A DNA stretch of 64,000 bases from Eledone cirrhosa (Eukaryota). This document shows, in pieces, positions 5,317-61,954 of the stretch (positions are counted from its first letter, which is position 1; each line of letters begins with the position of its first letter). The notes below the pieces were generated by a model. The model did not search any database, was not told where the DNA came from, and saw only the letters and a list, made by a program, of their open reading frames with translations. The DNA is taken from contig OZ024742.1 of assembly GCA_964016885.1 (NCBI GenBank), positions 226,300,001 to 226,364,000 on the forward strand, given 5' to 3'. Both the position numbers and the translations under genes were made by a program.

Positions 5317-5320
<4 letters not shown>

Positions 5321-15734: not shown

Positions 15735-15754
15735 ATAGATATAGATATAGATAT

Positions 15755-18700: not shown

Positions 18701-18900
18701 ACCGTTCCTTAACTAACGTACTAATCCGATTCTTGTAGGCTCTACTTGCCGGCAAGGACAAGTTGAGCTTCCAGTAACCGGGGCCCTGTCTATGAGTTCT
18801 GTCAAGGTTGACCATGCAGGTCACTAATTTGTGGTCTGAATAGCCAACCATGCGCATTTTTGGACAACTTAAAAAGTCCTTATCCTTAATTCTAACTAAG
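15755..18900 (-). mobile_element. Tx1/L1-group non-LTR retrotransposon, 5'-truncated
   Basis: GC-rich block with long ORF; minus-strand AATAAA near 15765; flanked by (ATATAG)n and (TAGA)n. Confidence 0.9.
16074..18857 (-). CDS. Tx1-like ORF2: end of APE, RT and C-terminal CCHC zinc knuckle
   Basis: YSDHKLV, GPGYWKLN, KSPGLDGLPYE, NFRPITLLN, LDQSKAFDRV, RQGCPLS, YADD, GGLG, CPRC..ETVAHALVHC; no internal stop in 927 aa. Confidence 0.92.
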   Translation of the reverse strand: MRMVGYSDHKLVTCMVNLDRTHRQGPGYWKLNLSLPASRAYKNRISTLVKERLTGAIVNSRWWVSLKREIRVVSIEFSKVLAADRNRKERELIDRVEEAIRSGDVARVLASRTALSQFFDAKHEGCVVRSKIRALGNEGTKAVSWARVTEANSGTKSTIRSLRDLDGWAILEPKQMCEAFQRHFARLFGRGGEPVGNVDFGPYLDGLPRLSDREAKSCEEPISAAEIEDVLSQCGKRKSPGLDGLPYELYLAMPDLFPDLLEAVYCNWQQNGRIPCTVTKGVVTLVRKDENKGDEISNFRPITLLNTELQILAKVLAKRLALVVGNLVGDAQTCAIPSRSIHDNLHLMRYIIERVGNEPGFGGALINLDQSKAFDRVDHGYLDAVLAAAGFGPVFRGWITAMHSSRICSRVKVNGYLSEPFKIARSIRQGCPLSSLLYVLTLEPLLRKLELLQDIPLEPGLRKAVSAYADDVTVMVSTASEIEAVGTLLEEYEKFTGAKLNRDKSIGLQLGTWRGRPMPSDGVVGCWTEGPVKLLGVWFGPDLQVEKNWAEVTNRVFALTQKWASCKLSLKGRAEVANTYIASVIYYRLTVVPCPRETLTKMERALFQFLWKRRAPMVRRSICCQHPSKGGLGMPWLMMRKHALRLRHLYVFLTGQPVWASFVRRTFPRLVSLTELQSWVKQRPRKLGAWHTECAQALTALWQADPVISGDSTATFYRGLVRSRCDDALGEALDMEEDELASLFGRTFSPGPMDNFQKSLAWQCYRGALPVRERLYRHGRPGRDPAKKICPRCVCDEETVAHALVHCSGVVDLWGYVEQLLSRVGPIRLTTESIVMIKPPPPFKDEAEAVFLCVIALTKEVVWWTRLKGLRSGTFLSGQQLVRFFRYHFRRRIRMEREVLHPSRFYERWVKVARMARVNGPSLYMSL

Positions 18901-18929
18901 TAGATAGATAGATAGATAGATAGATAGAA

Positions 18930-23945: not shown

Positions 23946-24548
<603 letters not shown>

Positions 24549-24670
24549 ATATAGTCAACATCTACATACATCTACTATCCACTCAATATCTACACATTGT
24601 ATCTACCTATCTATATATATGTGTATCCCGTCAACATCTATATAATGTATCTGTCTATCTATATATATAT

Positions 24671-27600
24671 AGACACAGTATGTAGATGTTGACTGGATAT
24701 ATATAGAGATAGTCAGACACAGTACTGTGTAGATGTTGACTGGATAGATAGACACAGTATGTAGATGTTGACTGGATATATATAGAGATAGTCAGACACA
24801 GTACTGTGTAGATGTAGACTGGATAGATAGACACAGTATGTAGATGTTGACTGGATATATATAGAGATAGTCAGACACAGTACAATGTAGATGTAGACTG
24901 GATAGATAGACACAGTCTGTAGATGTTGACTGGATATATATAGAGATAGTCAGACACAGTACAATGTAGATGTAGACTGGATAGATAGACACAGTCTGTA
25001 GATGTTGACTGGATATATATAGAGATAGTCAGACACAGTACAATGTAGATGTAGACTGGATAGATAGACACAGTCTGTAGATGTTGACTGGATATATATA
25101 GAGATAGTCAGACACAGTACTGTGTAGATGTTGACTAGATAGATAGACACAGTAGGTAGATGTTGACTGGATATATATAGAGATAGTCAGACACAGTACT
25201 GTGTAGATGTAGACTGGATAGATAGACACAGTATGTAGATGTTGACTCTATATATATAGAGATAGTCAGACACAGTACTGTGTAGATGTAGACTGGATAG
25301 ATAGACACAATATGTAGATGTTGACTGGATATATATAGAGATAGTCAGACACAGTACTGTGTAGATGTAGACTGGATAGATAGACACAGTATGTAGATGT
25401 TGACTCTATATATATAGAGATAGTCAGACACAGTACTGTGTAGATATAGACTGGATAGATAGACACAGTATGTAGATGTTGACTGGATATATATAGAGAT
25501 AGTCAGACACAGTACTGTGTAGATGTTGACTGGATAGATTGACACAGTCTGTAGATGTTGACTGGATATATATAGAGATAGTCAGACACAGTACTATGTA
25601 GATGTAGACTGGATAGATAGACACAGTCTGTAGATGTTGACTGTATATATATATAGAGATAGTCAGACACAGTACTGTGTAGATGTAGACTAGATAGATA
25701 GACAGAGTATGTAGATGTTGACTGGATATATATAGAGATAGTCAGACACAGTACTGTGTAGATGTAGACTGGATAGAGAGACACAGTATGTAGATGTTGA
25801 CTGGATATATATAGAGATAGTCAGACACAGTACTGTGTAGATGTAGACTGGATAGATAGACACAGTATGTAGATGTTGACTGGATATATATAGAGATAGT
25901 CAGACACAGTACTGTGTAGATGTAGACTGGATAGATAGACACAGTCTGTAGATGTTGACTGGATATATATAGAGATAGTCAGACACAGTAATGTGTAGAT
26001 GTTGACTGGATAGATAGACACAGTCTGTAGATGTTGACTGGATATATATAGAGATAGTCAGACACAGTACTGTGTAGATGTAGACTGGATAGATAGACAC
26101 AGTATGTAGATGTTGACTGGATATATATAGAGATAGTCAGACACAGTACTATGTAGATGTAGACTGGATAGATAGACACAGTCTGTAGATGTTGACTGGA
26201 TATATATAAAGATAGTCAGACACAGTACTGTGTAGATGTTGACTGGATAGATAGACACAGTCTGTAGATGTTGACTGGATATATATAAAGATAGTCAGAC
26301 ACAGTACTGTGTAGATGTTGACTGGATAGATAGACACAGTCTGTAGATGTTGACTGGATATATATAGAGATAGTCAGACACAGTACTGTGTAGATGTAGA
26401 CTGGATAGATAGACACAGTATGTAGATGTTGACTGGATATATATAGAGATAGTCAGACACAGTACTATGTAGATGTAGACTGGATAGATAGACACAGTCT
26501 GTAGATGTTGACTGGATATATATAAAGATAGTCAGACACAGTACTGTGTAGATGTTGACTGGATAGATAGACACAGTCTGTAGATGTTGACTGGATATAT
26601 ATAAAGATAGTCAGACACAGTACTGTGTAAATGTTGACTGGATAGATAGACACAGTCTGTAGATGTTGACTGGATATATATAAAGATAGTCAGACACAGT
26701 ACTGTGTAGATGTTGACTGGATAGATAGACACAGTATGTAGATGTTGACTGGATAGATATAGAGATAGTCAGACACAGTACTGTGTAGATGTTGACTGGA
26801 TAGATAGACACAGTATGTAGATGTTGACTGGATATATATAGAGATAGTCAGACACAGTACTGTGTAGATGTAGACTGGATAGATAGACACAGTCTGTAGA
26901 TGTTGACTGGATATATATAGAGATAGTCAGACACAGTACTGTGTAGATGTTGACTGGATAGATAGACACAGTATGTAGATATTGTCTGGATAGATAGACA
27001 CAGTCTGTAGATGTTGACTGGATATATATAGAGATAGTCAGACACAGTACTGTGTAGATGTTGACTGGATAGATAGACACAGTATGTAGATATTGTCTGG
27101 ATATAAATAGAGATAGTCAGACACAGTACTATGTAGATATAGACTGGATAGATAGACACAGTCTGTAGATGTTGACTGGATATATATAGAGATAGTCAGA
27201 CACAGTACTGTGTAGATGTTGACTGGATAGATAGACACAGTCTGTAGATGTTGACTGGATATATATAAAGATAGTCAGACACAGTACTGTGTAGATGTAG
27301 ACTGGATAGATAGACACAGTATGTAGATGTTGACTGGATATATATAGAGATAGTCAGACACAGTACTGTGTAGATGTAGACTGGATAGATAGACAGAGTA
27401 TGTAGATGTTGACTGGATATATATAGAGATAGTCAGACACAGTACTGTGTAGATGTTGACTGGATAGATAGACACAGTATGTAGATGTTGACTGGATATA
27501 TATAGAGATAGTCAGACACAGTACTGTGTAGATGTAGACTGGATAGATAGACACAGTATGTAGATATTGACTGGATATATATAGAGATAGTCAGACACAG

Positions 27601-30600
27601 TACTGTGTAAATGTTGACTGGATAGATAGACACAGTCTGTAGATGTTGACTGGATATATATAGAGATAGTCAGACACAGTACTGTGTAGATGTAGACTGG
27701 ATAGATAGACACAGTATGTAGATGTTGACTGGATATATATAGAGATAGTCAGACACAGTACTGTGTAGATGTAGACTGGATAGATAGACAGAGTATGTAG
27801 ATGTTGACTGGATATATATAGAGATAGTCAGACACAGTACTGTGTAGATGTAGACTGGATAGATAGACACAATATGTAGATGTTGACTGGATATATATAG
27901 AGATAGTCAGACACAGTACTATGTAGATGTAGACTGGATAGATAGACACAGTCTGTAGATGTTGACTGGATATATATAGAGATAGTCAGACACAGTACTG
28001 TGTAGATGTAGACTGGATAGATAGACACAGTATGTAGATATTGTCTGGATATAAATAGAGATAGTCAGACACAGTACTGTGTAGATGTTGACTAGATAGA
28101 TAGACACAGTCTGTAGATGTTGACTGGATATATATAGAGATAGTCAGACACAGTACTGTGTAGATGTAGACTGGATAGATAGACACAGTATGTAGATATT
28201 GTCTGGATATAAATAGAGATAGTCAGACACAGTACTGTGTAGATGTTGACTAGATAGATAGACACAGTCTGTAGATGTTGACTGGATATATATAGAGATA
28301 GTCAGACACAGTACTGTGTAGATGTAGACTGGATAGATAGACACAGTATGTAGATATTGTCTGGATATAAATAGAGATAGTCAGACACAGTACTGTGTAG
28401 ATGTTGACTAGATAGATAGACACAGTCTGTAGATGTTGACTGGATATATATAGAGATAGTCAGACACAGTACTGTGTAGATGTAGACTGGATAGATAGAC
28501 ACAGTATGTAGATGTTGACTGGATATATATAGAGATAGTCAGACACAGTACAATGTAGATGTAGACTGGATAGAGAGACACAGTCTGTAGATGTTGACTG
28601 GATATATATAAAGATAGTCAGACACAGTACTGTGTAGATGTTGACTGGATAGATAGACACAGTATGTAGATGTTGACTGGATATATATAAAGATAGTCAG
28701 ACACAGTACTGTGTAGATGTAGACTGGATAGATAGACACAATATGTAGATGTTGACTGGATATATATAGAGATAGTCAGACACAGTACTGTGTAGATGTT
28801 GACTAGATAGATAGACACAGTAGGTAGATGTTGACTGTATATATATAGAGATAGTCAGACACAGTACTGTGTAGATGTAGACTGGATAGATAGACACAGT
28901 CTGTAGATGTTGACTGGATATAAATAGAGATAGTCAGACACAGTACTGTGTAGATGTAGACTGGATAGATAGACACAATATGTAGATGTTGACTGGATAT
29001 ATATAAAGATAGTCAGACACAGTACTGTGTAGATGTAGACTGGATAGATAGACACAGTATGTAGATGTTGACTGGATATATATAGAGATAGTCAGACACA
29101 GTACTGTGTAGATGTTGACTGGATAGATAGACAGAGTATGTAGATGTTGACTGGATATATATAGAGATAGTCAGACACAGTACTGTGTAGATGTAGACTG
29201 GATAGATAGACACAGTATGTAGATGTTGACTGGATATATATAGAGATAGTCAGACACAGTACTGTGTAGATATAGACTGGATAGATAGACACAGTCTGTA
29301 GATGTTGACTGGATATATATAGAGATAGTCAGACACAGTACTGTGTAGATGTAGACTGGATAGATAGACACAGTATGTAGATGTTGACTGGATATATATA
29401 GAGATAGTCAGACACAGTACTGTGTAGATGTAGACTGGATAGATAGACACAGTATGTAGATGTTGACTGGATATATATAGAGATAGTCAGACACAGTACT
29501 GTGTAGATGTTGACTGGATAGATAGACACAGTCTGTAGATGTTGACTGGATATATATAGAGATAGTCAGACACAGTACTGTGTAGATGTTGACTAGATAG
29601 ATAGACACAGTAGGTAGATGTTGACTGGATATATATATAGAGATAGTCAGACACAGTACTGTGTAGATGTAGACTGGATAGATAGACACAGTATGTAGAT
29701 GTTGACTGGATATATATAGAGATAGTCAGACACAGTACAATGTAGATGTAGACTGGATAGATAGACACAGTCTGTAGATGTTGACTGGATATATATAGAG
29801 ATAGTCAGACACAGTACTGTGTAGATGTAGACTGGATAGATAGACACAGTATGTAGATGTTGACTGGATATATATAAAGATAGTCAGACACAGTACTGTG
29901 TAGATGTAGACTGGATAGATAGACACAGTATGTAGATGTTGACTGGATATATATAGAGATAGTCAGACACAGTAATGTGTAGATGTTGACTGGATAGATA
30001 GACACAGTATGTAGATGTTGACTGGATATATATAGAGATAGTCAGACACAGTACTGTGTAGATGTTGACTGGATAGATAGACACAGTATGTAGATGTTGA
30101 CTGGATATATATAGAGATAGTCAGACACAGTACTGTGTAGATGTAGACTGGATAGATAGACACAGTCTGTAGATGTTGACTCTATATATATAGAGATAGT
30201 CAGACACAGTACTGTGTAGATGTAGACTGGATAGATAGACACAGTCTGTAGATGTTGACTGGATATATATAGAGATAGTCAGACACAGTACTGTGTAGAT
30301 GTAGACTGGATAGATAGACACAGTATGTAGATGTTGACTGGATATATATAGAGATAGTCAGACACAGTACTGTGTAGATGTAGACTGGATAGATAGACAC
30401 AGTATGTAGATGTTGACTGGATATATATAGAGATAGTCAGACACAGTACTGTGTAGATGTTGACTAGATAGATAGACACAATATGTAGATGTTGACTGGA
30501 TATATATAGAGATAGTCAGACACAGTACTGTGTAGATGTAGACTGGATAGATAGACACAGTCTGTAGATGTTGACTGGATATATATAGATAGTCAGACAC

Positions 30601-33600
30601 AGTACTGTGTAGATGTTGACTAGATAGATAGACACAGTCTGTAGATGTTGACTGGATATATATAGAGATAGTCAGACACAGTACTGTGTAGATGTAGACT
30701 GGATAGATAGACACAGTATGTAGATGTTGACTGGATATATATAGAGATAGTCAGACACAGTACTGTGTAGATGTTGACTAGATAGATAGACACAGTCTGT
30801 AGATGTTGACTGGATATATATAGATAGTCAGACACAGTACTGTGTAGATGTTGACTAGATAGATAGACACAATATGTAGATGTTGACTGGATATATATAG
30901 AGATAGTCAGACACAGTACTGTGTAGATGTTGACTAGATAGATAGACACAGTCTGTAGATGTTGACTGGATATATATAGAGATAGTCAGACACAGTACTG
31001 TGTAGATGTTGACTAGATAGATAGACACAGTCTGTAGATGTTGACTGGATATATATAGAGATAGTCAGACACAGTACTGTGTAGATGTAGACTGGATAGA
31101 TAGACACAGTCTGTAGATGTTGACTGGATATATATAGATAGTCAGACACAGTACTGTGTAGATGTTGACTAGATAGATAGACACAGTCTGTAGATGTTGA
31201 CTGGATATATATAGAGATAGTCAGACACAGTACTGTGTAGATGTTGACTAGATAGATAGACACAGTCTGTAGATGTTGACTGGATATATATAGAGATAGT
31301 CAGACACAGTACTGTGTAGATGTAGACTGGATAGATAGACACAGTATGTAGATGTTGACTGGATATATATAGAGATAGTCAGACACAGTACTGTGTAGAT
31401 GTTGACTAGATAGATAGACACAGTCTGTAGATGTTGACTGGATATATATAGAGATAGTCAGACACAGTACTGTGTAGATGTAGACTGGATAGATAGACAC
31501 AGTATGTAGATGTTGACTGGATATATATAGAGATAGTCAGACACAGTAATGTGTAGATGTAGACTGGATAGATAGACACAGTCTGTAGATGTTGACTGGA
31601 TATATATAGAGATAGTCAGACACAGTACTGTGTAGATGTTGACTGGATAGATAGACAGAGTATGTAGATGTTGACTGGATATATATAGAGATAGTCAGAC
31701 ACAGTACTGTGTAGATGTAGACTGGATAGATAGACACAGTATGTAGATGTTGACTGGATATATATAGAGATAGTCAGACACAGTACTGTGTAGATGTAGA
31801 CTGGATAGATAGACACAGTATGTAGATGTTGACTGGATATATATAGAGATAGTCAGACACAGTACTGTGTAGATGTAGACTGGATAGATAGACACAGTCT
31901 GTAGATGTTGACTGGATATATATAGAGATAGTCAGACACAGTACAATGTAGATGTAGACTGGATAGATAGACACAGTATGTAGATGTTGACTGGATATAT
32001 ATAGAGATAGTCAGACACAGTACTGTGTAGATGTTGACTAGATAGATAGACACAGTCTGTAGATGTTGACTGGATATATATAGAGATAGTCAGACACAGT
32101 ACTGTGTAGATGTTGACTAGATAGATAGACACAGTCTGTAGATGTTGACTGGATATATATAGAGATAGTCAGACACAGTACTGTGTAGATGTAGACTGGA
32201 TAGATAGACACAGTAGGTAGATGTTGACTGGATATATATAAAGATAGTCAGACACAGTACTGTGTAGATGTAGACTGGATAGATAGACACAGTATGTAGA
32301 TGTTGACTGGATATATATAGAGATAGTCAGACACAGTACTGTGTAGATGTAGACTGGATAGATAGACACAGTCTGTAGATGTTGACTGGATATATATAGA
32401 GATAGTCAGACACAGTACTGTGTAGATGTTGACTAGATAGATAGACACAGTATGTAGATGTTGACTGGATATATATAGAGATAGTCAGACACAGTACTGT
32501 GTAGATGTAGACTGGATAGATAGACACAGTATGTAGATGTTGACTGGATATATATAGAGATAGTCAGACACAGTACTGTGTAGATGTTGACTGGATAGAT
32601 AGACACAGTATGTAGATGTTGACTGGATATATATAGAGATAGTCAGACACAGTACAATGTAGATGTAGACTGGATAGATAGACACAGTAGGTAGATGTTG
32701 ACTGGATATATATAGAGATAGTCAGACACAGTACTGTGTAGATGTAGACTGGATAGATAGACACAGTCTGTAGATGTTGACTGGATATATATAGAGATAG
32801 TCAGACACAGTACTGTGTAGATGTTGACTGGATAGATAGACACAGTATGTAGATGTTGACTGGATATATATAGAGATAGTCAGACACAGTACAATGTAGA
32901 TGTAGACTGGATAGATAGACACAGTAGGTAGATGTTGACTGGATATATATAGAGATAGTCAGACACAGTACTGTGTAGATGTAGACTGGATAGATAGACA
33001 CAGTCTGTAGATGTTGACTGGATATATATAGAGATAGTCAGACACAGTACTGTGTAGATGTTGACTGGATAGATAGACACAGTCTGTAGATGTTGACTGG
33101 ATATATATAGAGATAGTCAGACACAGTACTATGTAGATGTAGACTGGATAGATAGACACAGTCTGTAGATGTTGACTGGATATATATAGAGATAGTCAGA
33201 CACAGTACTGTGTAGATGTTGACTGGATAGATAGACACAGTATGTAGATGTTGACTGGATATATATAGAGATAGTCAGACACAGTACTATGTAGATGTAG
33301 ACTGGATAGATAGACACAGTATGTAGATGTTGACTGGATAGATAGACACAGTATGTAGATGTTGACTGGATATATATAGAGATAGTCAGACACAGTACTG
33401 TGTAGATGTTGACTGGATAGATAGACAGAGTATGTAGATGTTGACTCTATATATATAGAGATAGTCAGACACAGTACTGTGTAGATGTAGACTAGATAGA
33501 TAGACACAGTATGTAGATGTTGACTGGATATATATAGAGATAGTCAGACACAGTACTGTGTAGATGTAGACTGGATAGATAGACACAGTATGTAGATGTT

Positions 33601-34315
33601 GACTGGATATATATAGAGATAGTCAGACACAGTACTGTGTAAATGTAGACTGGATAGATAGACACAGTATGTAGATGTTGACTGGATATATATAGAGATT
33701 GTCAGACACAGTACTGTGTAGATGTAGACTGGATAGATAGACACAGTCTGTAGATGTTGACTGGATATATATAGAGATAGTCAGACACAGTACTGTGTAG
33801 ATGTAGACTGGATAGATAGACACAGTATGTAGATGTTGACTGGATATATATAAATATAGTCAGACACAGTACTGTGTAGATGTTGACTGGATAGATAGAC
33901 ACAGTAGGTAGATGTTGACTGGATATATATAGAGATAGTCAGACACAGTACTGTGTAGATGTAGACTGGATAGATAGACACAGTATGTAGATGTTGACTG
34001 GATATATATAAAGATAGTCAGACACAGTACTGTGTAGATGTTGACTGGATAGATAGACACAGTCTGTAGATGTTGACTGGATATATATAGAGATAGTCAG
34101 ACACAGTACTGTGTAGATGTAGACTGGATAGATAGACAGAGTATGTAGATGTTGACTGGATATATATAGAGATAGTCAGACACAGTACTATGTAGATGTA
34201 GACTGGATAGATAGACACAGTCTGTAGATGTTGACTGGATATATATAGAGATAGTCAGACACAGTACTGTGTAGATGTAGACTGGATAGATAGACACAGT
34301 ATGTAGATGTTGACT

Positions 34316-34325
<10 letters not shown>
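24671..34325 (-). repeat. 79-bp satellite array, ~120 copies
   Basis: Minus-strand unit CCAGTCAACATCTACATACTGTGTCTATCTAT-CCAGTCTACATCTACACAGTACTGTGTCTGACTATCTCTATATATAT; 79-bp period visible in the ORF track. Confidence 0.98.
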
Positions 34326-34380
<55 letters not shown>

Positions 34381-34959
34381 CAACAACACCATTGTCTGTG
34401 TTGAATGTGTGTGTATGTATGTATTTATATATATGCGACTACAATAACAGCATCAACACCATTGTCTGCAGCATCAGTGAAATGAAGAACAACAACAACG
34501 GCAGCAGCAGCAACAACAACAACAGCAACAGCAGCAGCAACTACAATAACAACTACAGCAACAACAACTGCCACCACCATCACTGACCATCCACCACCAC
34601 CGCCATCACCATACTGACTCCATCCACCACCATTCACCACCACCACCACCATTCACCACCACCACCACCATTACCAGCGTAAAGCAACCAATTACTATTA
34701 TTATTATATAAAAACTGAACTGGACTGGGAAAAGTCAACAGTTGACATGATTTTGATTTTGTATTTGTATCAGTACTGCCGGTAATATATATATATATAT
34801 ATATATATGTGTTTGTGAGTGGTGTGTATGTTTGTATGCATGAATGAGTGTTGGTATGTGAGTGGCGTGTGTGTGTTTGTGGTTTGTATGCATGAGTGTT
34901 GGTGTGTGAGTGTGTGTGTGTGCGTCGTGTCAATAAGTTTGTTTTTTTTGTTTTTTTTT

Positions 34960-37900
34960 AATGACCATGCTGTAAAATGGAGGGGTAGAGAGGGCCCTTG
35001 AGTCTAGTAAGACATCCTCTCTAGTGCTGGTGGCACAAATAAAAGCACCCAGTCCATGCTGTAAAGTGGTGCTGGTGTTACGAAGGGCATCCAACCAGTG
35101 TATCAATGCCAAAACGCTTATCAGCACAGCAACAAATAGGAACAACAACAAAATATGAAGACGTCGCGTCTCAGAGTTGCAACACTTAATGTTGGCACTC
35201 TCAGAGGTAGATCTGCTGAAATAGTGGAGATGCTGGAGAGAAGGCAGGTGGATGTGTGCTGCGTGCAAGAGGTGAGATGGAGAGGTGCCTCTGCGAGACT
35301 AGTCGTAGGCAAACATCTTAGCTATAAGCTTTTCTGGGTAGGTAAGGATGATGGGTTAGGGGGAGTAGGCCTTTTCCTGGCTGAGAAATGGATCAATAAG
35401 ACAATAGAGGTAGTTCGAGTTAGTAATCGAATAATTAAGCTTAGATTAGTTGTAGGCAGGAGACTACTGACAATCATCTCGGCCTATGCTCCCCAAGCAG
35501 GCCTAGGCAAAGATGAGAAAAACTGCTTTTACGAGCAACTTTTTACAAACAACCGCAATGACAGAGGACGGAGACATCGTTATGCTAGCAGGAGACTTCA
35601 ATGGTCATGTTGGACAGTTCCAGGATGGTTACATTGGGGTACATGGTGGGCACGGTTACGGCTCAACAAATGAAGAAGGAGTGAGACTTCTTGAATTTTG
35701 TGATGCAGGTACATTGACTATTTGCAACACAAACTTCCAGAAACCTGCCAATCACCTAATAACCTACAAATCTGGTGAGCACATAAGCCAGATTGACTTC
35801 TTACTAGTTAGGCAGCGGGACAGGAAGATAGTGTCTAATACCAAGGCATACCCTGGGGAAGAATGTACCCCACAGCATATGTTAGATGTTAGTGATATCT
35901 CAGTAAGCAAGAGATGGAATGAGACATATAGGAAGGTGTGGAGAAGAAAGGTCTGGAAGCTAAAAGACCTTTCACTAAAATACAAATTTAGGAAAGCCCT
36001 TCAAGATGTATATGACGAAAAAGAAGACGATTTAGAGACGTATGACATAGATAATAACTGGAATTTCTGACGTGACAACTTGCTGCAGACTACTGATGAA
36101 ACTTGTGGCTGGAGCAGAGCTCCAACCAGACAGAGAGTGACCTGGTGGTGGAACAGCACAGTAGATAAGGCCATTAGAGACAAAAGACTAGCATGGAAGG
36201 TTGGAAAAAGGGTGGGAGTAGGAAAGAATATACAGCCACTAAGAGAGAAGCTAGATGTCAGGTGTACTTAGCACGCAGGGAGGCTGAGAGTAGGAGGTTT
36301 GCCAATGTTCTGCGACGGGAAGATCAGAGGCGTGCGGTGTTCCACATTGCAAGGCAGTGTGTCAATGCAAATCAGGATGTTGTTGGAGATAAATGTGTCC
36401 GGGATGATGCCGGTGTACTTAGTGTCATGAATGATCAGAAAAAGGAGGTCTGGAAATGTCATTATGAGAGACTGATGAATGTGGAGAACGAATGGGAGAG
36501 AGAGAAATTACCCTTAGTAGATCCGACAGAGAGACCAGCTATTGAGATTGACGAATATAGGGTCCAAGAGGCGATTAGGGAAATGAAAAATGATAAGGCT
36601 GCTGGACCATCGGGAATAGTTGCTGAGATGCTGAAGGCATCAGGGGACATAGGTACTAAACTGGTTGCACACATCATCAATCAGGCTATATATGGTGGTG
36701 TCATACCCAAAGACTGGTGCAGCAGTATTCTCATAAATTGCTACAAAGGTAAAGGGGTTGCTCTGGAGAGGAGCAATTATAGGGTATAAAACTGATAGAT
36801 CAGGTTATGAAAGTGGCAGAAAGGATATTAGCACAACTAATTAGAGAAAGGGTCAAACTAGATGAGATGCAGTTTGGTTTTGTGCCTGGGAAGAGTACAA
36901 CAGATGCCCTCTTCTTGGTGAGACAATTGCAAGAGAGGTTCTTAGAGAAAAATAAGCCACTATACTTAGCCTTTGTTGACCTAGAGAAGGCCTTTGATAG
37001 GGTACCCCGATCTGTCATCTGGTGGTCCCTAAGGAAACTAGGTGTTGAGGAATGGCTTGTGAGGACAGTGCAAACTTTGTACAGAGGTACTCTTAGTAAA
37101 GTCAGGGTAGGAATGGAGTTTAGTGAGGAATTCCAGATACAAGTAGGAGTACATCAGGGTTCGGTCCTCAACCCGCTCTTGTTCAAGCCATAATAGAGGA
37201 GTTTAAGACTGGCTGTCCATGGGAACTTCTCTATGTTGACGATCTGGTTCTTATAGCAGAATCAGTAGAGGAGCTAGAGAATACATTCCGGCTATGGAAA
37301 CAGCAGTTGGAAGCAAGAGGACTGACAGTGAACCTAGCTAAGACAAAAGTGTTGATGAGTAGAAAAGAGGACAAAACTCTGATTCCATCAGGGAAATGGC
37401 CATGTTCGATATGCAGAAAAGGAACTGGCATAAATTCTATAAAATGCTCACAATGCAGATCTTGGGTACACAAGAGATGTAGCGGGATAGCAGGCAAACT
37501 AACAGGTAGGGAGAAATATGTATGCAGTAGATGTACAGGGAAATTAGACAGTAGAAGTCGCATTGATAGACACATTTTTAATTGCAGGAGGGCGCTATAG
37601 AAGTGGTGGATAGCTTCCAGTACCTTGGAGATCAGATTAGCTTGGGAGGAGGGTGTTCTGAGGCCATAGTATCTAGAATAAGGATGAGTTGGAAGAAGTT
37701 TAGGGAGCTGCTTCCTCTGTTGACTAAGAAGGGTTTCTCACTGCATACGAAAGGCCGGTTGTATGATGCCTGTGTGAGGAGCGCGATGCTGCATGGTAGT
37801 GAGACATGGGCAGCAACTGCAGAGGATATGCGACGGCTGGAGAGAAATGAGGCAAGCATGCTTCATTGGATATGCAGTGTAAATGTGCGTGAACGACCCA

Positions 37901-38122
37901 GCACAGATGAGTTGAGAGACAAACTGTGTCTGAGAGGGATAGAATTTAGTGTACGGGAGAGGAGACTGAGGTGGTATGGACATGTGATGTGCATGGAGGA
38001 TGACCGATAGGTGAAGAAGTGCCAGGAAATGCGAGTTGAAGGAGAGATGCTGTGCTGAATAAGACCCGTCCCACCCTTGCAAGTAGGGAAAAGTGGACGT
38101 AAAATGATGATGATGATGATGA
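34960..38122 (+). mobile_element. Full-length decayed RTE LINE subfamily C, copy 1
   Basis: 5' UTR, ATG 35155, APE (VATLNVGTL, QEVRW, GDFNGH, IDFLL), RT, PHD, short 3' end and (GAT)n; several stops/frameshifts and a ~110-bp deletion near 38045. Confidence 0.93.
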
Positions 38123-38142
38123 TATATATATATATATATATA

Positions 38143-41100
38143 TATCCAGTCAACATCTACATACTGTGTCTATCTATCCAGTCAACATCTACACAGTACT
38201 GTGTCTGACTATCTCTATATATATCCAGTCAACATCTACATACTGTGTCTATCTATCCAGTCTACATCTACACAGTACTGTGTCTGACTATCTTTATATA
38301 TATCCAGTCAACATCTACAGACTGTGTCTATCTATCCAGTCAACATCTACACAGTACTGTGTCTGACTATCTCTATATATATCCAGTCAACATCTACATA
38401 CTGTGTCTATCTATCCAGTCAACATCTACACAGTACTGTGTCTGACTATCTCTATATATATATCCAGTCAACATCTACATACTGTGTCTATCTATCCAGT
38501 CAACATCTACACAGTACTGTGTCTGACTATCTCTATATATATCCAGTCAACATCTACATACTCTGTCTATCTATCCAGTCTACATCTACACAGTACTGTG
38601 TCTGACTATCTCTATATATATCCAGTCAACATCTACCTACTGTGTCTATCTATCCAGTCAACATCTACACAGTACTGTGTCTGACTATCTCTATATATAT
38701 CCAGTCAACATCTACATACTGTGTCTATCTATCCAGTCTACATCTACACAGTACTGTGTCTGACTATCTCTATATATATCCAGTCAACATCTACATACTG
38801 TGTCTATCTATCCAGTCTACATCTACACAGTACTGTGTCTGACTATCTCTATATATATCCAGTCAACATCTACATACTGTGTCTCTCTATCCAGTCTACA
38901 TCTACACAGTACTGTGTCTGACTATCTCTATATATATCCAGTCAACATCTACATACTGTGTCTATCTATCCAGTCTACATCTACACAGTACTGTGTCTGA
39001 CTATCTCTATATATATCCAGTCAACATCTACCTACTGTGTCTATCTATCCAGTCAACATCTACACAGTACTGTGTCTGACTATCTCTATATATATCCAGT
39101 CAACATCTACATACTGTGTCTATCTATCCAGTCTACATCTACACAGTACTGTGTCTGACTATCTCTATATATATCCAGTCAACATCTACATACTGTGTCT
39201 CTCTATCCAGTCTACATCTACACAGTACTGTGTCTGACTATCTCTATATATATCCAGTCAACATCTACATACTGTGTCTATCTATCCAGTCTACATCTAC
39301 ACAGTACTGTGTCTGACTATCTCTATATATATCCAGTCAACATCTACCTACTGTGTCTATCTATCCAGTCAACATTTACACAGTACTGTGTCTGACTATC
39401 TCTATATATATCCAGTCAACATCTACAGACTGTGTCTATCTATCCAGTCTACATCTACATTGTACTGTGTCTGACTATCTCTATATATATCCAGTCAACA
39501 TCTACAGACTGTGTCAATCTATCCAGTCAACATCTACACAGTACTGTGTCTGACTATCTCTATATATATCCAGTCAACATCTACAGACTGTGTCAATCTA
39601 TCCAGTCTACATCTACACAGTACTGTGTCTGACTATCTTTATATATATCCAGTCAACATCTACAGACTGTGTCAATCTATCCAGTCAACATCTACACAGT
39701 ACTGTGTCTGACTATCTCTATATATATCCAGTCAACATCTACATACTGTGTCTATCTATCCAGTCTACATCTACACAGTACTGTGTCTGACTATCTCTAT
39801 ATATATCCAGTCAACATCTACATACTGTGTCTATCTATCCAGTCTACATCTACACAGTACTGTGTCTGACTATCTCTATATATATCCAGTCAACATCTAC
39901 ATACTGTGTCTCTCTATCCAGTCTACATCTACACAGTACTGTGTCTGACTATCTCTATATATATCCAGTCAACATCTACATACTGTGTCTATCTATCCAG
40001 TCAACATCTACACAGTACTGTGTGTGACTATCTCTATATATATCCAGTCAACATCTACATACTGTGTCTATCTATCCAGTCTACATCTACACAGTACTGT
40101 GTCTGACTATCTCTATATATATCCAGTCAACATCTACATACTGTGTCTATCTATCTAGTCAACATCTACACAGTACTGTGTCTGACTATCTCTATATATA
40201 TCCAGTCAACATCTACATACTGTGTCTATCTATCCAGTCTACATCTACACAGTACTGTGTCTGACTATCTCTATATATATCCAGTCAACATCTACATACT
40301 GTGTCTATCTATCCAGTCTACATCTACACAGTACTGTGTCTGACTATCTCTATATATATCCAGTCAACATCTACATATTGTGTCTATCTATCCAGTCAAC
40401 ATCTACACAGTACTGTGTCTGACTATCTCTATATATATCCAGTCAACATCTACAGACTGTATCTATCTATCCAGTCAACATCTACACAGTACTGTGTCTG
40501 ACTATCTCTATATATATCCAGTCAACATCTACCTACTGTGTCTATCTATCTAGTCAACATCTACACAGTACTGTGTCTGACTATCTTTATATATATCCAG
40601 TCAACATCTACATATTGTGTCTATCTATCCAGTCTACATCTACACAGTACTGTGTCTGACTATCTCTATATATATCCAGTCAACATCTACATACTGTGTC
40701 TATCTATCCAGTCTACATCTACACAGTACTGTGTCTGACTATCTCTATATATATCCAGTCAACATCTACAGACTGTATCTATCTATCCAGTCAACATCTA
40801 CACAGTACTGTGTCTGACTATCTCTATATATATCCAGTCAACATCTACATACTGTGTCTATCTATCCAGTCTACATTTACACAGTACTGTGTCTGACTAT
40901 CTCTATATATATCCAGTCAACATCTACAGACTGTGTCTATCTATCCAGTCTACATCTACACAGTACTGTGTCTGACTATCTTTATATATATCCAGTCAAC
41001 ATCTACCTACTGTGTCTATCTATCTAGTCAACATCTACACAGTACTGTGTCTGACTATCTCTATATATATCCAGTCAACATCTACAGACTGTGTCTATCT

Positions 41101-44100
41101 ATCCAGTCTACATCTACACAGTACTGTGTCTGACTATCTTTATATATATCCAGTCAACATCTACAGACTGTGTCTATCTATCCAGTCAACATCTACACAT
41201 TACTGTGTCTGACTATCTCTATATATATCCAGTCAACATCTACATACTGTGTCTATCTATCCAGTCTACATCTACACAGTACTGTGTCTGACTATCTCTA
41301 TATATATCCAGTCAACATCTACATATTGTGTCTCTCTATCCAGTCTACATCTACACAGTACTGTGTCTGACTATCTCTATATATATCCAGTCAACATCTA
41401 CATACTGTGTCTATCTATCCAGTCTATATCTACACAGTACTGTGTCTGACTATCTCTATATATATCCAGTCAACATCTACATACTGTGTCTATCTATCCA
41501 GTCTACATCTACACAGTACTGTGTCTGACTATCTCTATATATATCCAGTCAACATCTACATACTGTGTCTATCTATCCAGTCTACATCTACACATTACTG
41601 TGTCTGACTATCTCTATATATATCCAGTCAACATCTACATACTGTGTCTATCTATCCAGTCTACATCTACACAGTACTGTGTCTGACTATCTCTATATAT
41701 ATAGAGTCAACATCTACATACTGTGTCTATCTATCCAGTCTATATCTACACAGTACTGTGTCTGACTATCTCTATATATATCCAGTCAACATCTACATAC
41801 TGTGTCTCTCTATCCAGTCTACATCTACACATTACTGTGTCTGACTATCTCTATATATATCCAGTCAACATCTACATACTGTGTCTATCTATCCAGTCTA
41901 CATCTACACAGTACTGTGTCTGACTATCTCTATATATATATCCAGTCAACATCTACATACTGTGTCTATCTATCCAGTCAACATCTACACAGTACTGTGT
42001 CTGACTATCTCTATATATATCCAGTCAACATCTACAGACTGTGTCTATCTATCCAGTCTACATCTACACAGTACTGTGTCTGACTATCTCTATATATATC
42101 ATGTCAACATCTACAGACTGTGTCTATCTATCCAGTCTACATCTACACAGTACTGTGTCTGACTATCTCTATATATATCCAGTCAACATCTACATACTGT
42201 GTCTATCTATCCAGTCTACATCTACACAGTACTGTGTCTGACTATCTCTATATATATCCAGTCAACATCTACATACTGTGTCTATCTATCCAGTCTACAT
42301 CTACACAGTACTGTGTCTGACTATCTCTATATATATATCCAGTCAACATCTACATACTGTGTCTATCTATCCAGTCTACATCTACATAGTACTGTGTCTG
42401 ACTATCTCTATATATATCCAGTCAACATCTACAGACTGTGTCTATCTATCCAGTCAACATCTACACAGTACTGTGTCTGACTATCTCTATATATATCCAG
42501 TCAACATCTACATACTGTGTCTATCTATCCAGTCAACATCTACACAGTACTGTGTCTGACTATCTTTATATATATCCAGTCAACATCTACAGACTGTGTC
42601 TATCTATCCAGTCAACATCTACACAGTACTGTGTCTGACTATCTTTATATATATCCAGTCAACATCTACAGACTGTGTCTATCTATCCAGTCAACATCTA
42701 CACAGTACTGTGTCTGACTATCTTTATATATATCCAGTCAACATCTACAGACTGTGTCTATCTATCCAGTCTACATCTACACAGTACTGTGTCTGACTAT
42801 CTCTATATATATCATGTCAACATCTACAGACTGTGTCTATCTATCCAGTCAACATCTACACAGTACTGTGTCTGACTATCTTTATATATATCCAGTCAAC
42901 ATCTACAGACTGTGTCTATCTATCCAGTCAACATCTACACAGTACTGTGTCTGACTATCTTTATATATATCCAGTCAACATCTACAGACTGTGTCTATCT
43001 ATCCAGTCTACATCTACACAGTACTGTGTCTGACTATCTCTATATATATCCAGTCAACATCTACAGACTGTGTCTATCTATCCAGTCTACATCTACACAT
43101 TACTGTGTCTGACTATCTCTATATATATCCAGTCAACATCTACATACTGTGTCTATCTATCCAGTCTACATTTACACAGTACTGTGTCTGACTATCTCTA
43201 TATATATCCAGTCAACATCTACCTACTGTGTCTATCTATCCAGTCTACATTTACACAGTACTGTGTCTGACTATCTCTATATATATCCAGTCAACATCTA
43301 CAGACTGTGTCTATCTATCCAGTCTACATCTACACAGTACTGTGTCTGACTATCTCTATATATATCCAGTCAACATCTACCTACTGTGTCTATCTATCCA
43401 GTCTACATTTACACAGTACTGTGTCTGACTATCTCTATATATATCCAGTCAACATCTACAGACTGTGTCTATCTATCCAGTCAACATCTACCTACTGTGT
43501 CTATCTATCCAGTCTACATTTACACAGTACTGTGTCTGACTATCTCTATATATATCCAGTCAACATCTACATACTGTGTCTATCTATCCAGTCTACATCT
43601 ACACAGTACTGTGTCTGACTATCTCTATATATATCCAGTCAACATCTACATACTGTGTCTATCTATCCAGTCAACATCTACACAGTACTGTGTCTGACTA
43701 TCTCTATATATATCCAGTCAACATCTACATACTGTGTCTATCTATCCAGTCAACATTTACACAGTACTGTGTCTGACTATCTCTATATATATCCAGTCAA
43801 CATCTACAGACTGTGTCTATCTATCCAGTCTACATCTACACAGTACTGTGTCTGACTATCTCTATATATATCCAGTCAACATCTACATATTGTGTCTATC
43901 TATCCAGTCTACATCTACACAGTACTGTGTCTGACTATCTCTATATATATCCAGTCAACATCTACAGACTGTGTCTATCTATCCAGTCTACATCTACACA
44001 GTACTGTGTCTGACTATCTCTATATATATCCAGTCAACATCTACATACTGTGTCTATCTATCCAGTCAACATCTACACAGTACTGTGTCTGACTATCTCT

Positions 44101-44825
44101 ATATATATCCAGTCAACATCTACATACTGTGTCTATCTATCCAGTCTACATCTACACAGTACTGTGTCTGACTATCTCTATATATATCCAGTCAACATCT
44201 ACATATTGTGTCTATCTATCCAGTCTACATCTACACAGTACTGTGTCTGACTATCTCTATATATATCCAGTCAACATCTACATACTGTGTCTATCTATCC
44301 AGTCAACATTTACACAGTACTGTGTCTGACTATCTCTATATATATCCAGTCAACATCTACATATTGTGTCTATCTATCCAGTCAACATCTACACAGTACT
44401 GTGTCTGACTATCTCTATATATATCCAGTCAACATCTACAGACTGTGTCTATCTATCCAGTCAACATCTACATACTGTGTCTATCTATCCAGTCTACATC
44501 TACACAGTACTGTGTCTGACTATCTTTATATATATCCAGTCAACATCTACATACTGTGTCTATCTATCCAGTCTACATCTACACAGTACTGTGTCTGACT
44601 ATCTCTATATATATCCAGTCAACATCTACATACTCTGTCTATCTATCCAGTCTACATCTACACAGTACTGTGTCTGACTATCTCTATATATATCCAGTCA
44701 ACATCTACATACTCTGTCTATCTATCCAGTCTACATCTACACCAGTACTGTGTCTGACTATCTTTATATATATCCAGTCAACATCTACATACTGTGTCTA
44801 TCTATCCAGTCAACATCTACACCAG
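38143..44825 (+). repeat. 79-bp satellite array, ~85 copies, opposite orientation to 24671-34325
   Basis: Same unit read on the + strand. Confidence 0.98.
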
Positions 44826-45139
44826 TATTTCCCAAACATGTTTACTCAAAGCACACATTAGAACAAGTAAAAATATGTTGCTGCAATTTATACTTAAATT
44901 CTAAAAATTTATTCAAAAGAGATATTTACACACATTAACAGCATAAATAGAAATATAGATAATTAAACATCCAGAAAAATTATTTGTACTTCCTTCTTTA
45001 ATCAATAAATAGAACAAAGTTATCAATATGTACTTGGTGTTATTTGGTAATATTTTCATTATAAGCTTAGTTATTTCTCACTTTGACAGTTAGATATGGA
45101 CTTTATGTTGAATTCCAATTTGTATTTTTAACATTCCTT

Positions 45140-45572
45140 CCTATGGTCATGAATCTTGGGTAATGACTGAAAGAATACGATCAGCTGAAAGGGGGTTCTT
45201 CCAAAGGGTCTTTGAAGTAACATTACTCGATAGAGTGTGAAGCTCGAAGATCAGAGAGTCACTCCAAGTAGAGCTGCTACTTCTTCGAATTGAGAGATCA
45301 CGGCTCTGATACTATGGGCATGTGGTTAGAATGTCTCGGGGAAAGAATTGCTAGACAGATTTTACGAGCAAAACCAGCCGGCAGGAGACCCAGGTGTAAA
45401 CCTTGATCAAGATGGTAGGATACCATCCATGAGATTGGCTGGTCTCACATGGGGATCCAGCCAGATCAGTTAGAGACAGTTGCTTCAGATAGGACCTACT
45501 GGAAGGAATGTTTGAGGACTCTGCCTCCATGGCCCTCTCAGGAATAAGTGGGTGAAGAAGAAGAAATAGAAA
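45140..45572 (+). mobile_element. Decayed RTE-like LINE 3' fragment (different family)
   Basis: TATGGTCATGAATCTTGG (YGHESW), TATGGGCATGTGGTTAGAATG (YGHVVRM), (GAA)n end. Confidence 0.7.
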
Positions 45573-46384
45573 CATGCTCTTTCATGATACATCTGTAGTA
45601 CATCTTGTGGCAGACATGTAGGCCAAGGCACACAGTTTGGGAACCGCTGATCATCGCACACCAGTATGCTGAGGCACACCGTTTTGAGAGCCACTGAGCT
45701 ATACAAACACAACTGAAGGCTTTTTCTTTTTTTATATATATAAGTTAGTCCCAGAAAGAGAAGAAATTACTTGTACAGGCCTTCCCAGATTGGTGACATT
45801 AATGTGATGACCTCAGGGTGTTACACATCCAGCTGGTGACATTAATGTGGTTGTTGTTGAGTATGAATATCTCCAATTTATCTATGACCTCTGAAGGTCA
45901 CACACCCAAACTGTCAAATGTAGTTGATGTTCAATTTGAATACTTGAAGGTCAATATTTGCAGGAAAGATATGAACAAGGAGTGAATTCCAGGAGGTTTA
46001 CAGTGCTGAGGAAGGAGTTAGCCAAGTGTTTTGTCAAAGCATAACTTATAAGTGTGGTACAGTCATTACATCAGACCATAGGCCAGAGAGATCCATGAAT
46101 ATTTGATTTCACCACCACTGTCACCACACCTCTCGCAAACCCTTAAATTTTGAGAAGAGGCCCTACTTCGATTCTACCCACACAAAGAAGCCTGAAAGTA
46201 ACCATGTTCTAATTTGTGATGTTTCTCTTAGAAGTCCTGAGTAGGAGGCCATTGAGAGACGATAAGGATGATGTGAAGGAAGGTAGATAGGTGCGATGTG
46301 TCAGATATATCCACAAGAATATCTGAAGTTACAACTACAAAATAACTAAAACAATCGATAGTTTTAGTGCTATTATTACTTCAG

Positions 46385-51818: not shown

Positions 51819-52317
51819 AAATATGGTTTTATAAATATAGTTTCCATTTATTTAATATCATTGTATATATCGCTGGCACGATCCACCACCACCGCCATCA
51901 CCACCGTCCACCGACACCATCCACCACCTTCACCACCACCACTACTACCACCGCCACCATCACTAGCACCATCCACCATCGCCACCATCAGTCACCATCC
52001 ACCAGCACCACCATCACCATCACTGACACCATCCACCACCTCCACCACTACCACCACCACCACCACCATCACTGACATCATCCACCACCATCACCATGAC
52101 TGACACCATCCACCTCCACCACCACCATCACTGACACCATCCACCACCACCACCATCACTGGCACCATCCACCACCATCACCACCAACATTCACCACCAC
52201 CACCACCATTACCAGCGTAAAACAAACAATTATTATTATTATTATATAAAAACTGAACTGGACTGGGAAAAGTCAACAGTTGACATGATTTTGATTTTGT
52301 ATCAGTACTGCCGGTAA

Positions 52318-52660
52318 TCATCATCATCATCATCATCATTTTACGTCCGCTTTTCCCAGCTTGCAAGGGAGGGACGGGAACTGATTTTGGCTTGATTTCT
52401 ACAGCTGGATGCCCTTCCTAACACCAACCTCATTTACAGTGAGTGCTGGGTGCTTTTTTGCCGTGGCACCTCCACGACCACTTTACAGTGGAATGATATG
52501 GACCTCAGTCCTATCATCTCATTTCTACAGCTGAGTAAACTGGAGCAATGTGAAATAAAGTGTCTTGCTCAAGGAAACAACACATCACCCAGTCTGAGAA
52601 TTGAACTCACAACCTTTCGATTGCAAGGCCAATGCTCTAACCACTAAGCCATGTGCCTCC
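52318..52660 (-). mobile_element. Composite SINE: tRNA-like head plus RTE-derived bipartite tail
   Basis: Minus-strand head GGAGGCACATGGCTTAGTGGTTAGAGC..GAGTTCAATTC; tail with GGAAGGGCATCCAGC, RTE-C terminus and (GAT)n; absent from the paralogous site at ~34786. Confidence 0.85.
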
Positions 52661-52819
52661 ATTATATATATGTGTGTATGTGAGTGGTGTGTGTGCTTGT
52701 ATGCATGAATGGGTGTTGGTGTGTGAGTGGCGTGTGTGTTTGTAGTTTGTATGCATGAGTGTTGGTGTGTGAGTGTGTGTGTGCGTGTCGTGTCAATAAG
52801 TGTTTTTTTTGGGGGGGGT

Positions 52820-55800
52820 TTTATGACCATGCTGTAAAATGGAGGGGTAAAGAGGGCCCTTGAGTCTAGTAAGGCATCCTCTCTAGTGCTGGTGGCACAA
52901 ATAAAAGCACCCAGTCCATGCTGTAAAGTGGCACTGGTGTTAGGAAGGGCATCCAACCAGTGTATCAATGCAAAAACTCTTATCAGCACAGCAACAAATA
53001 GGAACAACAACAAAATATGAAGACGTCGCATCTCAGAGTTGCAACACTTAATGTTGGAACTCTCAGAGGTAGATCTGCTGAAATAGCGGAGATGCTGGAG
53101 AGAAGGCAGGTGGATGTGTGCTGCGTGCAAGAGGTGAGATGGAGAGGTGCCTCTGCGAGACTAGTCGGAGGCAAACATCTTAGCTATAAGCTTTTCTGGG
53201 TAGGTAAGGATGATGGGTTAGGAGGAGTAGGCATTTTGCTGGCTGAGAGATGGATCAATAAGACAATAGAGGTAGTTCGAGTTAGTAATCGAATAATTAA
53301 GCTTAGATTAGTTGTAGGCAGGAGACTACTGACAATCATCTCTGCCTATGCTCCCCAAGCAGGCCTAGGCAAAGATGAGAAAGACTGCTTTTACGAGCAA
53401 CTTTTACAAACAACCACAATGACAGAGGACGGAGACATCGTTATGCTAGCAGGGGACTTCAATGGTCATGTTGGACAGCTCCAGGAGGGTTACACTGGGG
53501 TACATGGTGGGCACGGTTACAGCTCAAGAAATGAAGAAGGAGTGAGACTTCTTGAATTTTGTGATGCAAGTACACTGACTATTTGCAACACAAACTTTCA
53601 GAAACCTGCCGATCACCTAATAACCTACAAATCTGGTGAGCACATAAGCCAGATTGACTTCTTACTAGTTAGGCAGCGGGACAGGCAGATAGTGTCTAAT
53701 ACCAAGGCATACGCTGGGGAAGAATGTACCCCACAGCATAGGTTAGTCGTTAGTGATATCTCAGTAAGCAAGAGATGGAATGAGACATACAGGAAGGTAT
53801 GGAGAAGAAAGGTCTGGAAGCTAAAAGACCTTTCACTAAAATACAACTTTAGGAAAGCCCTTCAAGATGTATTTGACGAAAAAGAAGACGATTTAGAGAC
53901 GTATGACATAGATAATAACTGGAATTTTTTACGTGACAATTTGCTGAAGGTTACTGATGAAACTTGTGGCTGGAGCTGAGCTCCAACCAGACAGAGAGTG
54001 AACTGGTGGTGGAACAGCACAGTAGATAAGGCCATTAGAGACAAAAGACTAGCATGGAAGGCTTGGAAAAAGGTTGGAAGTAGGGAAGAATATATAGCCG
54101 CTAAGAGAGAAGCTAGACGTCAGGTGTACTTAGCACGCAGGGAGGCTGAGAGTAGGAGGTTTGCCAATGTTCTGCGACGGGAAGATCAGAGGCGTGCAGT
54201 GTTCCACATTGCAAGGCAGTGTGTCAATGCAAATCAGGATGTTGTTGGAGATAAATGTGTCCGGAATGCTGCCAGTGTACTTAGTGTCACGAATGATCAG
54301 AAAAAGGAGGCCTGGAAATGTCATTATGAGAGACTGATGAATGTGGAGAACGAATGGGAGAGAGAGAAATTACTCTTAGTAGATCCGACAGAGGGACCAG
54401 CTATTGAGATTGACGAATATAGGGTCCAAGAGGCGATTAAGGAAATGAAAAATAGTAAGGCTGCTGGACCATCGGGAATAGTTGCTGAGATGTTAAAGGC
54501 ATCAGGGGACGCATCATCAATCAGGCTATATATGGTGATGTCATACCCAAAGACTGGTGCAGCAGTATTCTCATAAATTGCTACAAAGGTAAAGGGGATG
54601 ATCTGGAGAGGAGCAATTATAGGGGTATAAAACTGATGGATCGAGTTATGAAAGTGTCAGAAAGGATATTAGCACAACTAATTAGAGAAAGGGTCAAACT
54701 AGATGAGATGCAGTTTGGTTTTGTGCCTGGGAAGAGTACAACAGATGCCTCTTCTTGGTGAGACAATTGCAAGAGAGGTTCTTAGAGAAAAATAAGCCAC
54801 TATACTTAGCCTTTGTTGACCTAGAGAAGGCTTTTGATAGGCTACCCTGATCTGTCATCTGGTGGTCCCTAAGGAAACTAGGTGTTGAGGAATGGCTTGT
54901 GAGGACAGTGCAAACTTTGTACAGAGGTACAGTCAGTAAAGTCAGGGTAGGAGTGGAGTTTAGTGAGGAATTCCAGATACAAGTAGGAGTACATCAAGGT
55001 TCAGTCCTCAGCCCGCTCTTGTTCATTATAGTCCTCCAAGCCATAACAGAGGAGTTTAAGACTGGCTGTCCATGGGAACTTCTCTATACTGACGATCTGG
55101 TTCTTATAGCAGAATCAGTAGAGGAGCTAGAGAATAAATTCTGGCTATGGAAACAGCAGTTGGAAGCAAGAGGACTGAGAGTGAACCTAGCTAAGACAAA
55201 AGTGTTGATGAGTAGAAAAGAGGACAAAACTCTGATTCCATCAGGGAAATGGCCATGTTCGATATGCAGAAAAGGAACTGGCATAAATTCCATAAAATGC
55301 ACACAATGCAGATCCTGGGTACACAAGAGATGTAGCGGGATAGCAGGCAAACTAACAAGTAGGGAGAAATATGTATGCAGTAGATGTACAGGGAAATTAG
55401 ACAGTAGAAGTCGCATTGATAGACACATTTTTCAAATGCAGGCGGGTGCTATAGAAGTGGCGGATAGCTTTCGGTACCTAGGAGATCAGATTAGCATGGG
55501 AGGAGGGTGTTCCAAGGCCATAGTATCTAGAATAAGGATGGGTTGGAAGAAGTTTAGGGAGCTGCTTCCTCTACTGACGAAGAAGGGTTTCTCCCTGCGT
55601 ATGAAAGGCCAGTTGTATGATGCCTGTGTGAGGAGCGCGATGCTGCATGGTAGTGGGACATGGGCAGCAACTGCAGAGGATATGCGATGGCTGGAGAGAA
55701 ATGAGGCAAGCATGCTCCATTGGATGTGCAGTGTAAATGTGCGTGAATGACCCAGCATGAATGTGTTGAGAGAGAAACTGTGTCTGAGAGGGATAGAATG

Positions 55801-56118
55801 TAGTGTACAGGAGAGGAGACTGAAGTGGTATGGAGATGTGATGTGCATGGAGGATGACCGATGGGTGAAGAAGTGTCAGGAAATGCCAGTTGAAGGAAGA
55901 CGTGGTAGAGGTAGACCACGAAAAACATGGGCGGAGGTGGTGAGAACAGACCTCAGATCGTTGAAGCTCACGGTGGAGATGACGAAGGACCATGACGAGT
56001 GGAGAGATGCTGTGCTGAATAAGACCCGTCCCACCCTTGCGAGCAGGGTGGGACGGGTCTTATTCAGCACAGCATGCAGGGAAGAGCGGACGTAAAATAA
56101 CGATGATGATGATGATGA

Positions 56119-56120
<2 letters not shown>
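52820..56120 (+). mobile_element. Full-length decayed RTE LINE subfamily C, copy 2
   Basis: ORFs 53017-53979 (APE), 53998-54576, 54899-55750 (RT/PHD), 55757-56095; (GAT)n tail. Confidence 0.93.

Positions 56121-56160
<40 letters not shown>

Positions 56161-61888: not shown

Positions 61889-61950
<62 letters not shown>

Positions 61951-61954
<4 letters not shown>

Follow-up and report, generated by a model that had tools for sequence, protein, structure and literature searches.

Here we describe an inverted pair of satellite arrays in the genome of Eledone cirrhosa. The window, meaning the whole stretch of DNA that was analysed, comprises 64,000 nucleotides of the forward strand (contig OZ024742.1 of assembly GCA_964016885.1, positions 226,300,001 to 226,364,000) and contains no N bases. 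Tandem Repeats Finder detected arrays of a 79-bp period on opposite strands, at 24665-34326 and 38137-44827, with 95-96% matches in both arms, and the 3,810 bp between them hold a long interspersed nuclear element (LINE) of the RTE type. Anchor-based splitting yielded 122 segments in the left array and 84 in the right one, in agreement with the initial annotation, a reading by a model, which gave about 120 minus-strand units, about 85 plus-strand units and a centre of 3.8 kb. The arms measure 9.7 kb and 6.7 kb, inverted stretches of a single monomer with stems of unequal, kilobase length, and the GC skew changes from +0.42 to -0.43 between the arrays. Each satellite unit combines two sub-repeats, of 34 bp and 45 bp. 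Seen from the centre outward, the two arrays begin at the (AT)n of the unit, the same phase that had been annotated. The left inner end is preceded by (AT)15-CT-(AT)14 and the right one directly by the RTE tail (GAT)6(AT)12, the latter also as annotated. From left to right, the order is an old forward edge, an AT tract, a reverse block, an AT tract, the centre, an AT tract and a forward array. Such a layout is far from what chance would produce.

A third switch of orientation lies just outside the start coordinate of the initial annotation, where it was overlooked. At this point, degenerate forward units meet the left arm tail to tail via (TA)6. Apart from these units, no convincing match to the monomer exists outside the arrays, and the other 47 kb of the window contain no copy of it. 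The degenerate units are likely to be an old array edge. An AT tract stands on either side of the reverse block, which lies within a forward array, and the structure as a whole is forward-oriented at its left and right outer edges. With the left arm and the centre taken away, the degenerate edge continues in phase into the right array. The earlier proposal that orientation changed at a strand-symmetric (AT)n is consistent with all three switch points. The outer end of the left arm falls at unit position 34 and not at the (AT)n of the unit. The right array terminates at the terminal inverted repeat of an old element (at 44823, the partner repeat ending at 45649), whose terminal inverted repeats appear hAT-like. 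The last two units of the right arm carry an extra C, at 44737 and 44817, which is absent elsewhere in both arms and matches the junction with the terminal inverted repeat. This suggests that the end of the right array was duplicated after the junction had formed.

For the variant statistics, the first and last segments of each arm were excluded, leaving 120 left and 82 right units. Altogether 31 variant types were found, 18 of them shared, 8 restricted to the left arm and 5 to the right arm, and the shared types account for 311 of 342 variant occurrences. Doublets and length variants of 81 bp and 111 bp are present in both arms. Arm-only variants occur in 15/120 left and 6/82 right units; the two motifs quoted in the initial annotation are indeed arm-specific (4 copies left, 2 copies right), but such variants are a minority overall. 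The mean number of differences per unit is 2.91 within the left arm, 2.50 within the right arm and 2.75 between the arms, giving a net arm difference of about 0.04 per unit (0.06%). Unit by unit, the arms are 96.7% alike, and the fixation index (Fst) between them, 0.016, is lower than that of two portions of the left arm compared with each other (0.030). The independent array turnover that had been put forward is contradicted by this common pool of variants.

The arms show no mirror order. Only 1 of 82 units is identical at mirror positions (shuffle p=0.505), and the mirror-position distance is 2.72, versus 2.73 when shuffled. The longest run of identical units common to the arms is 2, with 21 such runs against 27 expected, and the longest exact match between the arms is 240 bp. 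A recent fold-back palindrome was rejected on account of this absence of mirror colinearity, and the annotation was right that the innermost units are not exact mirrors. The segment Fst values reveal no gradient with position along the arms, adjacent units resemble each other little more than random pairs do, all four combinations are present at 26 of 55 site pairs, and singleton variants number 5 in 15,958 bases. The arrays are one young, heavily shuffled pool, neither a fresh fold-back nor two independently evolving arrays. A 28-base pattern of the monomer gave 0 matches in metagenome and viral contigs, as expected for an animal satellite. The coordinates of the locus are listed in Table 1.

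Table 1. Features of the inverted satellite locus and its array-free relative (positions in the window)
Feature	Position	Strand	Remarks
Degenerate satellite units, about 1.5	24535..24659	+	73-77% identity; orientation of the right array
(TA)6 tract	24660..24671		Third switch; tail-to-tail junction
Left array, 122 segments of the 79-bp unit	24670..34317	-	Outer end 45 bp short of a full unit
(AT)15-CT-(AT)14 tract	34318..34377		Left inner junction
Low-complexity stretch with (AAC)n, 193 bp	34378..34570		Single copy in the window
5' region common to 52119-53016 of the relative	34571..35154	+	(CCA)n, 115 bp unique, (AT)12, TG-rich
RTE-type LINE, broken	35155..38123	+	Apurinic/apyrimidinic (AP) endonuclease, reverse transcriptase and PHD remnants; (GAT)6 tail
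(AT)12 behind the RTE tail	38122..38145		Right inner junction
Right array, 84 segments of the 79-bp unit	38137..44822	+	Variant pool that of the left array
Old element with terminal inverted repeats	44823..45649		Abuts the outer end of the right array
Array-free relative of the central block	52119..56156	+	95.8% over 2,860 bp

In the central copy, Pfam models identified pieces of endonuclease, reverse transcriptase (RT) and PHD finger that are colinear though broken, Exo_endo_phos being followed by RVT_1 along 35140-37597. As is characteristic of the RTE clade, endonuclease and RT belong to one frame without a separate open reading frame 1 (ORF1), and the 3' tail is a short tandem repeat, here (GAT)6 at 38104-38123, and not poly(A). 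Other RTE copies have the same motif. The relatives encode about 1,040 amino acids with endonuclease, RT and PHD finger. The PHD finger stands behind the RT (37127-37600 and homologues), and many of 71 relatives carry one too. The best named protein match is from Octopus bimaculoides (62%). Among the named matches of the endonuclease of the nearby relative is 'craniofacial development protein 2-like', a label typical of RTE endonucleases. Comparison with the relative and with matching reads reveals single-base frameshifts of the central copy near 35540, 36200, 36781 and 37579; this copy also contains a stop at 36068 and, versus the nearby relative, deletions of 13, 106 and 33 bp, so that it does not have the uninterrupted frame of an intact, active LINE. 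To judge by its sequence, the central RTE is full-length in span and dead. The description of a complete RTE accordingly stands for the span from endonuclease to tail but not for the reading frame.

Four of 21 runs (X1, X6, X19 and X4) were compared with the RTE, and the repeats at 34240-34851 and 38096-38225 were left out of this comparison of the centre. Matches to the RTE numbered 27,657 contig records in X1, 222,616 reads in X19 and, from another organism, 3,321 records in X4, and their depth increases toward the 3' end. The RTE family is high-copy. Parts of the central stretch match runs X4-X17 (14 organisms), the pieces from X4 being close and spanning the whole RTE frame. A protein scan of metagenomes returned one relative at 52%, which was not used; its contig of 3,273 bp has hardly any flanking sequence. 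The window contains at least 10 RTE pieces. A second RTE subfamily with RT and PHD finger is represented by a 5'-truncated, 784-codon open frame at 5157-7511 on the plus strand, located between AT tracts.

The relative of the central block is situated 14.5 kb away from it and has no arrays. A tRNA-headed, RTE-tailed short interspersed nuclear element of 333 bp lies within its 5' AT tract (52317-52660, minus strand, with a (GAT)n tail); ARAGORN predicted 0 tRNA genes in the window, and the one weak tRNA match with Rfam is the head of this element. The separate history of the two RTE copies was assessed from private bases. This test drew on 40 of 398 rows, of which 37 were used, 3 beside indels being dropped, and 5 below 90% were not counted. 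At each of the resulting 32 sites, the central copy disagrees with at least 90% of the X1 depth; in the relative, 30 of these sites carry the family base, 2 fall in a gap and 0 carry the base of the central copy. With 0/32 private central bases in the relative, the two copies decayed separately, private decay amounting to about 2% per copy if equal, and an origin of the relative by segmental duplication after the RTE had decayed is disfavoured. The copies have in common 584 bp ahead of the start codon. This region (34571-35154) is likely to be the 5' untranslated region (UTR) or 5' end of the element, or a transduced flank. The stretch at 34378-34570 would be either genomic flank or a further 5' part of the element. 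What the initial annotation had called a short flank beside the RTE is in most part (34571-34800) common to the array-free relative, while 34378-34570 is unique in the window.

The proposed special link between the RTE and the arrays is not supported, since (AT)n next to an RTE is commonplace in the window and the 96% relative is array-free. Fourteen RTE 5' ends were picked by hand and scored as adjoining (AT)n if they lay no more than 15 bp from (AT)4 or longer. This was the case for 10 of the 14, or 8 of 12 without two possibly internal ends, against a background of 7.2% of non-array positions. Among the RTE tails in the window, 7 of 15 run directly into (AT)3 or longer. Every satellite unit contains an AT run, and this habit of the RTE predicts a tail entering the array at that phase. 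A limited literature search yielded no published description of an RTE preference for AT targets, so that AT targeting rests on the window's own counts. The central RTE is likely incidental, a passive spacer with no function implied.

We favour, with moderate confidence, an origin from one forward array that was split at the (AT)n of the unit by an AT-targeting RTE and in which one block was later reversed between AT tracts. In the first step, the RTE would have inserted into the (AT)n of a forward array, as its family usually does; entry into a forward array is suggested because the degenerate edge reads in phase into the right array. In the second step, recombination or template switching between AT tracts would have turned the left block around or generated a second array as an inverted copy. 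Reversal of a block between such tracts is plausible because (AT)n is its own reverse complement, and it would produce one tail-to-tail and one head-to-head junction, each phase-symmetric, as observed. In the third step, short-tract exchange between units, faster than mutation, would have erased the order of units, and inter-arm exchange or the recent origin of one arm would have kept the variants alike. The net divergence of the arms is about 30-fold below the decay of the RTE, which points to inter-arm exchange, a recent copy or a genome-wide pool. Several observations weigh against such an origin. With the left arm ending at unit position 34, a clean inversion would need an extra loss of 45 bp. 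The arms differ slightly yet significantly (permutation p=0.012), and the segment Fst values, being without gradient, cannot separate an in-place inversion from an inverted copy or a mirror origin. Moreover, the junctions are those of the assembly, and the monomer count covers the 64-kb window.

We consider it unlikely that the arrays, as parts of a satellite spread through the genome, were seeded independently and in random orientation into AT tracts flanking an old RTE, for example by reinsertion of circles through (AT)n homology, the variants common to both arms then reflecting the genome-wide pool. Arms this close are too alike for isolation given the approximately 2% decay of the RTE, the inner ends start exactly at (AT)n, and reinsertion of circles has been proposed for direction switches in Tribolium (PMC12581902). 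Against separate seeding, the degenerate units at the left edge indicate that the repeat has long been present at the locus, neither outer end falls at the (AT)n of the unit, unlike a clean circle insertion, and the monomer is otherwise missing from the rest of the window.

The model of the initial annotation, in which a fold-back at the central (AT)n was caused or stabilised by the RTE and was followed by separate turnover of the arms, with double-stranded RNA (dsRNA) as a product, appears quite unlikely to us. The close likeness of the arms agrees with it, as does the common phase of the inner ends: with the centre removed, they would form a perfect head-to-head palindrome around (AT)n. That common phase is, however, equally predicted by an inversion between AT tracts. 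The fold-back also leaves the third switch unexplained and is at odds with the lack of mirror order, with the shared and not separate variant pool, and with the observation that an RTE beside (AT)n is the rule in the window. Formation of dsRNA from both arms is possible in principle, given how alike their sequences are, but it would need a transcript starting upstream of the left arm because the RTE promoter would read only into the right arm.

A more far-reaching proposal is that the arms act as one recombination pool, pairing in any register, converting and trading units, occasionally flipping the RTE spacer and giving kilobases of editable read-through dsRNA, with the dead RTE holding the palindrome open; we regard this as distinctly improbable. 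An assembly artefact, i.e. a left block that was flipped or mis-joined at repeat boundaries, is very unlikely. The block is bounded by self-complementary tracts and the inner junctions lie outside the read comparison; but the outer switch consists of just 12 bp of TA, which any read would span, the arms are not exact mirrors, unlike a fold-back chimeric read, the window is free of N, and comparable inverted subarrays in Tribolium were checked and confirmed on raw HiFi reads (PMC12581902).

The weakest alternative, a foldback DNA transposon with the tandem arrays as long terminal inverted repeats and the RTE in its middle domain, resembles the Tetris elements in general layout, with inverted arms that are built of tandem repeats and enclose a non-coding middle part (PMC4079207), and is highly implausible, as foldback elements require matching outer termini and target duplications (PMC4079207), and here the outer ends are in different unit phases, the 400-bp outer flanks share no match longer than 10 bp, and no 7-mer is common to the 30 bp on the left of either candidate left end and the 40 bp on the right of the right end. 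A Tetris-type transposon was rejected, as matching outer termini, a shared outer domain and an 8-10 bp target site duplication are all missing here. A satellite carried by a Helentron, of the oyster type, is not supported either; the check was confined to one hairpin-like motif at the left edge, which recurs at 63911 within the 3' fragment of an RTE and lacks a counterpart close to the right end.

Viewed by analogy, the kind of arrangement is already known from other animals and plants. The macro-dyads described for TfSat01 and TfSat03 of Tribolium freemani likewise consist of kilobase inverted subarrays with unequal stems and defined switch points (PMC12581902). In that account they are pervasive and centromeric, and the TfSat01 switch points are without foreign sequence, unlike the present case of one locus with (AT)n switches and a 3.8-kb RTE spacer. 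In the CUS-TR24 satellite of the plant Cuscuta europaea, a simple-repeat motif of the monomer expands and ends arrays, LINEs insert and inversions occur, 10-15% of neighbouring arrays being oppositely oriented (PMC8091179). It differs in that the motif is (TAA)n and not the self-complementary (AT)n, and in that the LINE is reported as L1-CS, with RTE unassociated (PMC8091179). LINEs of the RTE clade (PMC6007223), including RTE-2_OV of octopus (PMC9115989), have a single endonuclease-RT frame and a microsatellite 3' end, as found here; RTE tails have been tied to microsatellites and to target choice (PMC6007223), and the 5' UTR of RTE-2_OV is given as about 600 bases (PMC9115989). The central copy is dead and has a PHD finger after the RT, whereas RTE-2_OV is described with a C2H2 finger (PMC9115989). 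For the third step, palindrome P6 of the human Y chromosome may serve as a model, with arms kept alike by conversion and rare inversion of the spacer (PMC3723533). Its arms are of unique sequence, in register and more than 99.9% alike (PMC3723533), in contrast to the tandem arms without colinearity described here. The combination of inverted satellite arrays, dyad symmetry and insertion of a transposable element was not found in a limited literature search, which is weak evidence of novelty.

No host genes were recognised among the frames examined in the window. A stop-free frame of 951 codons at 16074-18929 on the minus strand, with RVT_1 and zf-RVT and a GC content of 56%, is likely an L1/Tx1-type LINE. 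(TAGA)7 marks its start, and a perfect AT-rich hairpin lies close to its end, at approximately 15888-15925. A separate tandem repeat of 62 bp (10.8 copies, 86% matches) occupies 13523-14190. Two related AT-rich segments with internal inverted matches, at 14880-15754 and 61949-62458, are possibly a miniature inverted-repeat element.

The locus offers a single-locus example in which a self-complementary microsatellite within a satellite unit would act both as the target of a LINE and as an inversion breakpoint. Its unexpected aspect is that arms about 0.06% net apart enclose an RTE that has decayed by about 2%, which requires either that sequence is exchanged across the spacer or that an inverted copy arose recently. 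The remaining interest lies in this single variant pool, which extends across an orientation switch and an older spacer. If the arms did form a one-pool palindrome, AT-targeting RTEs would generally serve to stabilise satellite inversions across this genome. If inter-arm exchange and flipping of the spacer were shown, the locus would provide a tractable test of satellite homogenisation across orientation switches.

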